A DNA stretch of 64,000 nt from positions 128,001 to 192,000 of the forward strand of contig CAVSHR010000004.1 of NCBI GenBank assembly GCA_963727625.1, read 5' to 3'. A program made the translations under genes and the position numbers. Positions within the stretch are counted from its first letter, which is position 1; each line of letters starts with the position of its first letter. The DNA is from an uncultured delta proteobacterium. Its GTDB lineage: Bacteria > Desulfobacterota > Binatia > UBA9968. The notes beneath the pieces were generated by a model, which worked only from the letters and a program-made list of their open reading frames with translations, did not search any database and was not told where the DNA came from. Positions 37,444-41,082 of this stretch are shown piece after piece.

Positions 37444-38045
37444 GCTGATTTAGCGGTGTGGCCTGGACCTTGGGCGCGGGGATTCTGGCCGGCGTTCGTA
37501 GCTCATCGGATCAAGAAAAATTTCTCCCTTCGTCAGACTGAGTAAGAGCACTAAATCGAGGTTTTAGTACGGATGAGGAAAGGAGATCAAGGATTTAGTT
37601 CACGAGCGATCGGGAGTGGAGCAGAGGTCAAAATCAACTCGGCGATTTTCAAACCACGCGAGCAGCTTTTCGACGCCGGCCTACAAGTTCAAGCGGATAC
37701 TGAACCTCAGCTGGAGGTCAAAGGCTTGATTGCCGCACTCTATGAGCGGCCTAGCCGCCTATTTGCGGGGGATCTGGTCCATGCAGCGAAGCTTAAATGG
37801 CAAAAGGGCCGAAGACCGAGGTCGCCCTCATGTTTCGCGCAATTCAGACAAATTTTGCTCCTCATTGCAGGACGATAGCCAGAGTTTTCACGCAGTCGGA
37901 CACTCGAAATGACAACTTAGGGGTCTGTCGTCCCGAACCAAAAGAGCGATCTAGCCGAAACTGAGCCATTACCGGTGCCGACGGCTTTTCTGGCTGCTCT
38001 CGATTTGCTAGATTACGAATAGAAATTTCAGTTATGTGAGGGCCT

Positions 38046-38516
38046 ATGGAATCACTGACTCGGCGGCGTTTTAATATTATGGTTGTGTCCGTTTTGCTTT
38101 TGTACCCCTGGAATGACGTTTATGCGCAGGCAAAACCCGCCGTGCAAGCCATCACGGTTTACAAGACACCGACTTGAGGCTGCTGCGATGGCTGGGTCAG
38201 CCATCTGCAAAAAAACGGTTTCAAAGTTGAAAAGAAAATCCTCTTCGGCAAAAGCTTTACCGATTTCAAGCGCAAGCACGGCGTGCCGGAAAGGTTTTAC
38301 GCATGTCACACCGCGCTGATCGGCGGCTACGTGATCGAGGGGCATGTGCCGGTCGATTTGATTTATAAACTTCTAAAAGAGAAACCGGCGGTGGTCGGTT
38401 TGGTTGTGCCGGGCATGCCTGCGGGCTCGCCGGGGATGGAAGACGGCCGGACGGAACCTTATGAAGTTTTGACTTTCGATAAGAACGGGCGCACAACGGT
38501 GTACGCGAAACGGTAG
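38046..38516 (+). CDS. DUF411 (CopG-like) metal-binding protein, predicted selenoprotein (UGA codon 44, UGCC motif)
   Basis: Continuous frame MESLTRRRF...VYKTPT-TGA-GCCDGW...CHTA...EGHVP...VPGMPAGSPGME. TGA 38175-38177 sits at the first Cys of the YKxPxCGCC motif, and a SECIS-like hairpin follows. Confidence 0.85.
38184..38209 (+). promoter_or_regulatory. Candidate bacterial SECIS element
   Basis: Perfect 8-bp stem GATGGCTG/CAGCCATC with a GGT loop starting 18 nt after the UGA, extended by TGC/GCA with a bulged T. Confidence 0.7.
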
Positions 38517-38537
38517 AAACAAGGACGTGTCGGCGTA

Positions 38538-39560
38538 ATGGAGTATGAATCAGTGAAAATCAAATCCTGCGCGATATTAATGAGTCGCTTAATGGTGTGC
38601 GCGTTGTTTTTCGCCTTGGTCTCAACCTCGTTCGCTCAGGAAAAGAAAAATATTCGGATGGTCTTCGTCAGCCTCGCCTGGAACAGCGAGATCCCGTTCC
38701 GGGTTGCGAAGGTACGCGGGTTCTTCAAGCAGCAAGGGCTCCAGGTCGAGCCTATTTTGATCCGTGGTGGACCGGCCGCGATCGCTGCGCTCGTTTCCGG
38801 CCAAGTCGACTTCGCGGCCATCGGCGGGGCGCAGGCGGTGTTCCGCAGTCGGGCGCGCGGCCTGGAATTGTCGATCATCGGCTGTACCTCGAGCACGACG
38901 AATTACATTCTGCTCGGCGACAAGCAGACGCGAACGGTGGAAGAGCTCAAGGGAAAGACGATCGGGGTTACGGGAGCGGGCACTTACTCCGAATTCGCCG
39001 TAAGGACCTTTCTGAAGAAACACAACATCAACCCGGATAAGGACGTGGTTTTGCGTGCCATCGGTGGCACGGTGTTACGCGCGGCGGCGATGGAGAAGGG
39101 GCTCATCGCGGCGGCGCCGTTTTCCACCGAGGACGGCGTGCGGCTCATCAAAGCAGGCTATTCGGTAATCAGCAACATGAGCGAGTCCTTGGGCATTCCG
39201 CAGAATATCTTGGTGACACGCAGCGAAGTTTTGGAAAAATATCCCGAGAGTACAAAGCGAATGCTCAAAGCGTATATTCAAGGGATCAACCTCGCCAAGT
39301 TCAACAAGAAGGAAGCGATCAAAGCGGGCTACGAATCGGGCTTGAAGGGAGATCCTGAGATCGTCAGCGCGGCCTGGGATCTCTACTCGCCGGGACTGAC
39401 GTCGGATCTGTCCATCGCGACGGCCGGACTGCAGCAGATGCTCGACGAGGACATTCGCACGGGTTTGGTGGATAAGTCTTTTACCCTCGACCGAGTGGTC
39501 AACGACCGGATTCTCAAGATCGCGCAGCAGGAGCTCAGAGCCGAAGGCCGGATCAAGTAA
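38538..39560 (+). CDS. ABC transporter substrate-binding protein (NitT/TauT, SsuA/THI5-like)
   Basis: Signal peptide; GFFKQQGLQVEPI, AALVSGQVDF and ELKGKTIGV. Confidence 0.9.
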   Translation: MEYESVKIKSCAILMSRLMVCALFFALVSTSFAQEKKNIRMVFVSLAWNSEIPFRVAKVRGFFKQQGLQVEPILIRGGPAAIAALVSGQVDFAAIGGAQAVFRSRARGLELSIIGCTSSTTNYILLGDKQTRTVEELKGKTIGVTGAGTYSEFAVRTFLKKHNINPDKDVVLRAIGGTVLRAAAMEKGLIAAAPFSTEDGVRLIKAGYSVISNMSESLGIPQNILVTRSEVLEKYPESTKRMLKAYIQGINLAKFNKKEAIKAGYESGLKGDPEIVSAAWDLYSPGLTSDLSIATAGLQQMLDEDIRTGLVDKSFTLDRVVNDRILKIAQQELRAEGRIK

Positions 39561-39562
39561 GC

Positions 39563-39991
39563 ATGACGGTCAATCAAACGGAGACTGAGGCAACGCCGGA
39601 AGTCGCGTTGCGACAGGTGAGTACGGAACCCGATCGAGTAAAGCGGTTTTGGAGCATTGCTTGGGTTGTCGAGAACAAAGGGGCCCATACACTGGAAATT
39701 TTCGCCGTGCGTTTACCGCACGGCCAGTTCAAGTCGGAGGAACATCGGTTCGAGCCCGCGCTGAAGCTGGCAGCAGGACAAAGCGATGAGTTTAAGACCC
39801 TGGTGCGGTGCGACGAGCCAGCCGGACTCGTCACTGAAAATGCTTTCGTCATTTTTTCAGTAATCTGGTCAGAGCAGGCGTGGCGCATCTTCGTGCGGAT
39901 TCGCGTCGTGGTCAATTCTGAAGGCGAGCCTGTGACGGTGACCGAATCGGTCACGACTCAGATGGCCGGATTCTCGGGCGTGACAGCGTAG
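39563..39991 (+). CDS. Hypothetical protein (beta-rich, possibly Ig-like)
   Basis: Starts 2 nt after the SBP stop; 142 aa with alternating hydrophobic strands. Confidence 0.7.
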   Translation: MTVNQTETEATPEVALRQVSTEPDRVKRFWSIAWVVENKGAHTLEIFAVRLPHGQFKSEEHRFEPALKLAAGQSDEFKTLVRCDEPAGLVTENAFVIFSVIWSEQAWRIFVRIRVVVNSEGEPVTVTESVTTQMAGFSGVTA

Positions 39992-40326: not shown

Positions 40327-41082
40327 TTATCTACGCAACTTGACCGTCGGCTGGCGCAGATTCAGATCCTTCACACCGCCCCAGAACTCCCGTTTGCCGG
40401 TCATCGCCTGCACGTGGCCGTCCCATTCCAGGGTGAACGCGGTCAAACCGAGCTTCACCGCGGCGCGGACCTTGTTTTGCGTTGCTTCGTCGGTCGCCAA
40501 TTGCCTGATCGCGTCGATTTGGCGGCTGCCGTGGCCTTCGTCTTGGGCCGCGTGAAGCTTGTAGGTCTCGGCAGCGCGCGGCGTAAAGCCGTAGTGGCCG
40601 GTGAGCTCGCGATAGACCTTTTCGGAGATTTTTCCGGCGCCGCCGAGCTGGCTTTCGACGAAGGCGAGCATGGCGACGCCTTCGAGGGCGGAGCGGCGCT
40701 GGCAGCAGCCGATGATCATTTCGATGGCCGCGAGCGTTCCCGGCGCCGGTTCGGCGTTGTCCGCTTCGACGCGAGAAATGCCGCCTTCTTCGAGAAACTG
40801 GAGCATAATGTCCATGTGCGTGCGTTTGCCGCCGAGCTCTTCCATAAAATTTTCCAGCACCGTGTCCATTACGGTGTATTCCTTAGCCGACACGGCGTTC
40901 ACCGCCATGTAGCCGAAGAAGATCGGATTGGTGCGCACGCGCAGATAATGCTGCACTTCGCCGAGAATGATTTGCTCGCGCGTCCAGCAGTGCTTGATGA
41001 TGCCGTCGAACCAGGGATGCTGCTCCATCGGCACCTCCGCCGCGTCCCTCCAAAGCTGATCGATAAATTCATCGGGTGACAT
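40327..41082 (-). CDS. PqqC/CADD-like heme-oxygenase-like diiron oxidase
   Basis: HPW, ENFMEELGGKRTH, ES and LHAAQDEGH metal-ligand pattern. Confidence 0.8.
   Translation of the reverse strand: MSPDEFIDQLWRDAAEVPMEQHPWFDGIIKHCWTREQIILGEVQHYLRVRTNPIFFGYMAVNAVSAKEYTVMDTVLENFMEELGGKRTHMDIMLQFLEEGGISRVEADNAEPAPGTLAAIEMIIGCCQRRSALEGVAMLAFVESQLGGAGKISEKVYRELTGHYGFTPRAAETYKLHAAQDEGHGSRQIDAIRQLATDEATQNKVRAAVKLGLTAFTLEWDGHVQAMTGKREFWGGVKDLNLRQPTVKLRR

Follow-up and report, generated by a model that had tools for sequence, protein, structure and literature searches.

CopG proteins are periplasmic and thioredoxin-like (PMC7558416), and CopG of Pseudomonas aeruginosa (6WIS/6WJE) is the only relative of the protein described here for which a structure has been solved. 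As reported in PMC7558416, CopG binds a tetranuclear copper cluster via a CxCC motif and two methionines, contributes to copper resistance under anaerobic conditions, and has been proposed to oxidise Cu(I) and to hand copper to cuproproteins. According to the same article, copA, cus or multicopper-oxidase genes are frequently found linked to CopG genes.

The other described systems to which the present gene can be compared are the Sec/Cys pairs, in which selenocysteine (Sec or U) occupies the position of a cysteine. Table 1 of PMC13188914 (2026), covering 119 prokaryotic selenoprotein families and subfamilies, contains such pairs for UxxC thioredoxin, DsbA-like proteins, the SO_0444 Cu/Zn efflux transporter (UxC) and the CopZ-family 2Fe-2S proteins. 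As examples of Sec serving as a metal ligand, that article names the Mo/W site of formate dehydrogenase and the Ni site of [NiFeSe] hydrogenase, together with some candidate mercury or arsenic proteins in which Sec would bind the metal. We found a gene that can be compared with both groups of proteins in a stretch of bacterial DNA of 64 kb (the whole of which is referred to as the window below). We regard its product, with high confidence, as a periplasmic CopG-type (DUF411) selenoprotein of the thioredoxin fold, in which the UGA at position 38175 is decoded as Sec. The gene, termed the Sec-CopG gene hereafter, and the features found within it are as follows.

38046..38516, + strand: Sec-CopG/DUF411 gene, whole, stop codon counted (read-through translation, 156 residues, U44)
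38046..38132, + strand: predicted signal peptide M1-A29 (read from the sequence: RRR n-region, hydrophobic core, AQA and then K30)
38175..38177, + strand: in-frame TGA, putatively decoded as Sec, U44 (translation, relatives, alignment)
38175..38186, + strand: U-G-C-C, the equivalent of the CxCC copper-cluster motif in CopG (alignment to NCGCC of 6wis_A)
38184..38209, + strand: SECIS-like hairpin (folding, comparative data)
38304..38312, + strand: C87-H88-T89 motif (C87 and H88 invariant, T89 nearly invariant in the family alignment)
38337..38351, + strand: E98-G-H-V-P102 motif (family alignment)
38409..38438, + strand: P122-GMPAGSPG-M131 motif with M124 and M131 (family alignment; role of the methionines as given in PMC7558416)

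The reading frame starts with ATG at 38046 and ends with TAG at 38514-38516, and its sole interruption is the TGA at 38175-38177, which lies in the context VYKTPT-U-GCCDGW. The read-through product of 156 residues reads MESLTRRRFNIMVVSVLLLYPWNDVYAQA-KPAVQAITVYKTPT-U-GCCDGW... This translation agrees with a first-pass annotation of the same DNA, which had followed the frame from ATG 38046 through one TGA at 38175 and had named the motifs CHTA, EGHVP and PGMPxGSPGM; they were found at residues 87-90 (C87-A90), 98-102 and 122-131 (as PGMPAGSPGM), respectively. It had also remarked that the ORF track displays the C-terminal 77 aa alone. Under table 11, the ORF listing indeed contains just 38283..38516 in this frame, a 77-aa ORF with a GTG start.

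Of the best 120 matches among database proteins, 118 begin past the TGA and extend over only 65-69% of the query. These shortened calls are 103-161 aa in length and are titled hypothetical or DUF411 proteins. A product initiated past the TGA possesses neither the signal peptide nor the U/CxCC motif, and the 118 best matches lacking the signal peptide and the metal motif thus indicate that the protein is systematically misannotated in metagenomes and MAGs. Selenoproteome counts would be too low for the lineage bearing the Sec-CopG gene. Two database records, P0063 and P0002, were considered as close full-length Cys forms and rejected, as they bear W and S at the site, respectively. We take P0063 as a gene call made under a code in which TGA is Trp, and P0002 is a metagenomic singleton nearly identical to the protein of G025 (Ser codon TCA is one change away from TGA).

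The Pfam model of DUF411 (PF04214) matched the read-through protein with 85.8 bits against a cut-off of 27, and an NCBIfam scan of the same protein matched no family. Because the PF04214 model, with its 48 positions, spans only residues 86-131, we examined the Cys column against PDB 6WIS and homologues and not against the HMM. The 6wis_A sequence was aligned to residues 35-154 with an E value of 1.5e-27, placing residue 44 opposite the first C of NCGCC. TGC or TGT was found at the position of the TGA codon in 16 distinct homologues of other phyla, of which DNA sequences were fetched (Pseudomonadota, Chloroflexota and Myxococcota according to the record titles), as well as in L048, a Cys paralogue inside a related genome. 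After the removal of identical copies, namely L043 (= L047), L049-L052 (= L023, L025, L027 and L026) and L069 (= L068), 24 distinct Sec forms and 17 Cys forms were retained. In the alignment of the 41 sequences, column 44 is occupied by U in 24 and by C in 17, and the invariant columns are 44 (U/C), 46, 47, W50, C87, H88, E98, G99, H100, P102, M124 and M131. The TGA was thus confirmed to stand in the Cys column, as the first-pass annotation had read it, by 6wis_A and the 17 Cys forms instead of the DUF411 HMM that it had proposed to use.

An AlphaFold model based on the 41-sequence alignment had a mean pLDDT of 86.5, and the mature part was mostly above 87. The model was superposed on CopG (6wis_A) with a TM score of 0.89 (target-normalised), an rmsd of 1.7 A and a sequence identity of 42%, and the next best structural matches were thioredoxins and glutaredoxins, all with E > 0.01. 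In this model, U44 sits between the strand of residues 34-40 and the helix of residues 48-56; in thioredoxin-fold proteins, the active-site motif lies between such a strand and helix. The predicted protein and CopG of P. aeruginosa share the PF04214 domain, the fold, the x-C-C, C-H-T, E-G-H-V-P and P-G-M-P-x-G-S-P-G-M motifs, and an N-terminal export signal (predicted in the Sec form). On the other hand, the first Cys of CxCC is replaced in the present gene by a TGA, read as Sec, and the mature protein would carry U-x-C-C where CopG carries C-x-C-C.

We searched 61 related genomes in six frames with the read-through protein and detected 27 matching places in 25 of them. Exactly one TGA was present in 25 of the 27 places (24 genomes), of which the identities to the query ranged from 79% down to 48%, and all of the TGA places read ...(T/V)VY-x-x-P-(T/G)-TGA-x-C-C... 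The two places without TGA are the Cys paralogue L048 and L046, a weak partial match of 33 residues in the unpublished genome G005, which was left out of the alignments. The genome counts for the TGA places and for selA (see below) take in the unpublished G005 and G035, and no other claim relies on these two genomes. Two families of the order are covered by the hits: TGA matches were detected in 21 of the 36 genomes of f1 besides the query's own and in two of the five genomes of f2, and the same search yielded no match in the 19 genomes of f3. The TGA is therefore not private to the query genome, a point on which the first-pass annotation had wished to see related genomes compared. In the query genome itself, the Sec-CopG gene was the only DUF411 match found by the six-frame search. 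A sample of 300 genomes from the rest of the phylum yielded no homologue to the same query in those searched, and thus provided no nearby Cys forms.

When the 24 Sec and 17 Cys forms were placed in a maximum-likelihood tree, of which the root is not fixed, all the Sec forms fell on one side of a branch with a support of 95/98. This topology fits a single conversion, and the Sec form seems to have a single origin in the ancestor of an order-level lineage, in which it has been retained since then. Nei-Gojobori estimates, pooled over all pairs of the 24 Sec forms, gave a dN/dS of 0.20 for the 10 codons preceding the TGA and 0.10 for the part that follows it, both of which are rough because dS is near saturation. 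To judge from these values, there is a clear deficit of nonsynonymous change on either side of the TGA, pointing to purifying selection; the first-pass annotation had suggested this very comparison.

The genes for Sec synthesis and insertion, which it had likewise recommended searching for, were all detected in the query genome. The selA (607.5 bits), selB (397.5 bits) and selD (377 bits) genes, each above the curated cut-off, are located side by side on contig C5 at 715112-719466 (loci L001, L002 and L010). A tRNA-Sec, also above the curated cut-off with 76.7 bits, was found on a contig other than that of the Sec-CopG gene, and a tRNA scan of the 64-kb window detected none. The selD gene is a selenoprotein gene too, as it contains one TGA at C5:718570 in the context AAG-U-AAK, the known Sec position of this protein. 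The best hairpin of selD has a GUC loop and is located approximately 33 nt from the UGA, further away than the CopG hairpin, and comparison of the loops and positions of the two hairpins revealed no clear common pattern. Among the 61 relatives, selA was detected above the cut-off in 56. As for the 24 genomes with the TGA form, 22 possess selA above the cut-off, and the remaining two, in which no such match was detected, are G001 (65% complete) and G027 (92% complete). Genome-wide reassignment of TGA was also considered and ruled out, since 716 of the 1783 open frames with 400 or more codons terminate in TGA, which makes it the most frequent of the three stops.

The SECIS-like hairpin of the Sec-CopG gene consists of an upper stem of eight perfect pairs, GATGGCTG (38187-38194) with CAGCCATC (38198-38205), an apical loop of GGT (38195-38197, the 18th to 20th bases past the TGA), and a lower stem of 3 bp (38184-38186 with 38207-38209) with a bulged T at 38206. 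The fold of 61 nt around it had an MFE of -21.3 kcal/mol with a z score of -3.38, and none of 200 dinucleotide shuffles was as stable. The energy of the hairpin is -12.5 kcal/mol bare and -17.2 kcal/mol in context. An Rfam search of positions 37900-38600 at E <= 10 returned no match. In the minimum-energy fold, the UGA and the next five bases pair with 38216-38223, forming an outer helix around the hairpin (38175-38223). When compared with the bacterial SECIS consensus of Zhang and Gladyshev, as presented in section 5 of PMC13188914, the element is alike in the 3-nt loop of GGU with G first, the upper stem of 8 bp, the 17 nt from UGA to loop, and its energy. The clade of Sec-CopG differs from that consensus in using two registers 4 nt apart (see below for the details).

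An uninterrupted stem of 5-9 bp was found in all 24 distinct Sec forms, with the loop starting 17-25 nt from the U of UGA, and in 23 of them a stem of at least 5 bp with G among the first two loop bases lies 16-21 nt past the UGA. The mean simple-hairpin dG was -8.6 kcal/mol for the Sec forms versus -4.1 kcal/mol for the 17 Cys forms, in which the best stems were mostly 4 bp and scattered in position, although the genomes from which they came look richer in G+C. Relative to synonymous recodings of the sequence's own peptide, the mean z score was -1.40 for the Sec forms, which are thus more stably folded than the recodings, and +0.07 for the Cys forms, which are not (Mann-Whitney p of 3e-4, a value overstated because the sequences are related). 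The loose bSECIS criteria, in our own implementation of the published ones, were passed by all 24 Sec forms but also by 11 of the 17 Cys forms, so that passing them proves little. Judged by stem length, position and energy, the candidate SECIS-like hairpin is confined to the Sec forms.

The gapless alignment of the region downstream of the UGA revealed a helix common to the clade, formed by columns 18-24 with columns 28-34, in which 87.6% of the cells pair. None of 500 shuffles matched the observed pairing or covariation, and the registers slid from this one all paired in 47% of the cells or fewer. The pair of columns 18 and 34 is C-G in 10 sequences, G-C in eight and another combination in five. 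Note that part of this helix coincides with the codons for a conserved W-V-x-H-L peptide, and that the related genomes are not independent samples. Columns 13-20 with 24-31, corresponding to the 8-bp stem of the present gene, pair in 58% of the cells, which is no better than in the shuffles. The 8-bp stem with a GGT loop at +18 described in the first-pass annotation is thus present in this gene, but the helix that the clade has in common is offset from it by 4 nt. We consider that the 8-bp stem is the solution of the subclade to which the present gene belongs, and that, as read from these two pairing patterns, the predicted hairpin has switched between two registers, which overlap and differ by 4 nt, with its G-first apical loop retained.

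Two explanations that dispense with Sec have to be weighed against the data above. Were the TGA a nonsense mutation or a sequencing error, the locus would be a pseudogene or would produce the C-terminal piece alone, and the 77-aa ORF obtained under table 11 and the 118 of the best 120 database matches that begin past the TGA are what one would cite for it. We hold this explanation to be barely credible, since the same codon is TGA in 25 of the 27 places across 24 genomes, the codons upstream of the TGA have a dN/dS of 0.20, and the post-TGA product would be devoid of both the signal peptide and the U/CxCC motif. The UGA could instead be read through without Sec-tRNA, either by a near-cognate tRNA inserting Trp or Cys or by local recoding independent of SelB. 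Such readthrough finds some room in the metagenomic singleton P0002, where Ser at the site implies that another residue has been tolerated at least once. We nevertheless regard it as quite improbable, as the genome possesses the full Sec machinery and uses the same recoding in selD, the codon falls in the Cys column as in a classic Sec/Cys pair, and the position and the G-first loop of the hairpin match those of the bacterial SECIS described in PMC13188914.

In sum of these points (the TGA in 25 of the 27 places, the Cys column, dN/dS, the Sec machinery and the hairpin), the view of the first-pass annotation that the gene encodes an exported selenoprotein and is not a pseudogene is strongly supported. 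We infer Sec insertion at codon 44: the UGA at 38175 would be read as Sec by the SelA/SelB/SelD/tRNA-Sec system of the cell, and the hairpin starting just past the UGA would assist the decoding.

The N-terminus up to the putative cleavage site is MESLTRRRFNIMVVSVLLLYPWNDVYAQA, followed by K. The pLDDT of the AlphaFold model is approximately 51-57 over residues 1-30. All of the assessable N-termini of the Sec forms begin with a short charged segment, which leads into a hydrophobic stretch and then a site of small residues (such as AQA, AQS or GQA). The first-pass annotation had read LTRRRF, the hydrophobic stretch and AQA as a Tat (twin-arginine) signal, a reading that our analyses do not support. 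Of the 20 N-termini that begin with ATG, only two contain RR (the present gene and L034), and with the longest possible start the count is three of 24. The Tat-signal models in Pfam and NCBIfam gave no match at E <= 0.01. The present gene reads T-R-R-R-F-N-I, as compared with the Tat motif S/T-R-R-x-F-L-K. As the twin arginine is not conserved among the orthologues, it is simpler, and more likely, to read the N-terminus as an ordinary signal peptide of the Sec pathway, and the protein would be exported via the general Sec route, with cleavage probably occurring between AQA and K.

Two genes follow Sec-CopG downstream in the same orientation.

38538..39560, + strand: gene for an SsuA/NMT1-like periplasmic substrate-binding protein, 21 nt past the Sec-CopG stop, conserved neighbour
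39563..39991, + strand: gene for a protein of 142 aa that matched no family, recurrently found near Sec-CopG

A divergent O-methyltransferase gene is located upstream. In 17 of the 25 Sec loci, an SsuA/NMT1-like gene in the same orientation comes after the Sec-CopG gene. The gene for the 142-aa protein was found downstream in eight of the 25, and in L034 and L037 it immediately follows Sec-CopG. In the Atlas, the look-alikes of this 142-aa protein belong to unnamed clusters from Binatota and Chloroflexota. A convergent CADD/haem-oxygenase-like gene (40327-41082, - strand) comes next in the present locus, as well as in L034 and L037. No gene for an ABC permease or ATPase is adjacent in the 64-kb window. 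In contrast to the CopG genes described in PMC7558416, which often lie beside copA, cus or multicopper-oxidase genes, the Sec-CopG gene has no copper gene next to it at the present locus or among the recurrent neighbour clusters, and none was found in the 1.5-kb flanks of seven loci (L028, L034, L037 and L042-L045). The only CopA-type ATPase above the cut-off in the genome is encoded approximately 47 kb upstream (C4:116766-118574), and the only multicopper-oxidase match approximately 59 kb upstream (C4:107083-107424). The two are 10 kb apart, on the same contig as the Sec-CopG gene and just outside the window.

With no copper gene adjacent, the role in copper handling rests on homology to one characterised protein. 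The residues corresponding to the copper ligands named in PMC7558416 are U-G-C-C, M124 and M131 in the present protein, and their columns are invariant in the 41 sequences. The invariance of all these ligands makes a copper site, in which a selenolate would replace one thiolate, the most likely reading. The selenolate may be a copper ligand or the redox-active residue of a site handling Cu(I)/Cu(II).

Alternatively, the protein may be a selenoprotein that performs thiol/selenol redox chemistry on a substrate other than copper, with a CopG-like cluster left unformed. This is conceivable for a thioredoxin-like fold in which U falls where the active-site motif is located, and most of the Sec/Cys pairs in Table 1 of PMC13188914 are redox motifs. 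Neither the missing cop, cus and multicopper-oxidase genes at the locus nor the neighbours that are conserved there, namely the SsuA-like protein, the 142-aa protein and the CADD/haem-oxygenase-like enzyme, point to copper. On the other hand, CxCC (with U or C first) and the two methionines M124 and M131, the cluster residues according to PMC7558416, are retained in 41 of 41 sequences, and the protein is 42% identical to CopG with an rmsd of 1.7 A. We therefore consider the non-copper reading unlikely, albeit one to be kept in mind.

Returning to the copper site with a selenolate, the protein is like the Sec/Cys pairs in Table 1 of PMC13188914 in that UGA replaces an active-site or ligand Cys, that Cys homologues occur in other lineages, that a bSECIS hairpin follows right after the UGA, and that the organism uses Sec. 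It is unlike them in its motif, U-x-C-C, and in belonging to a family, PF04214, that is unlisted in that table; DUF411, PF04214 and CopG are all absent there. A literature search found no paper that joins DUF411 with selenoproteins, and none relevant, as judged by title and abstract, for the combination of CopG, selenocysteine and copper. Nor did a term search of the main texts of the deep-Sep, BSepDB, GOS and ISME 2016 papers, of which the supplements could list the family, find DUF411, PF04214 or CopG. Sec-CopG is, in our judgement, a genuine selenoprotein, and apparently an uncatalogued one. More tentatively, and with confidence somewhat short of even, we propose that a natural selenolate-ligated copper cluster exists here, in which Cu-Se/S coordination would alter the affinity or the redox behaviour, that this protein serves as the only CopG of an order-level lineage labelled as Binatia, and that the family has been missed by the catalogues because gene callers shorten it. 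Only a few selenoproteins are believed to use Sec for metal binding, and Sec-CopG would add copper to the metals concerned. The Sec and Cys forms may also serve as a natural pair for probing the part of selenium in a thiolate-bridged copper cluster.

Two minor observations concern the relatives bearing the Sec form. The closest public relatives (L049-L052) are labelled as Candidatus Binatia, as uncultured delta proteobacterium and as Chloroflexota, the labels of these MAGs being in conflict with one another. The complete-looking genome G037 contains two identical copies of the Sec-CopG gene, L043 and L047, at approximately 3295253 and 4453754 on C1, which are thus about 1.16 Mb apart and in opposite orientation. 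The open frames upstream of L043 resemble, by eye only, a broken transposase, which suggests a duplication with a mobile element.
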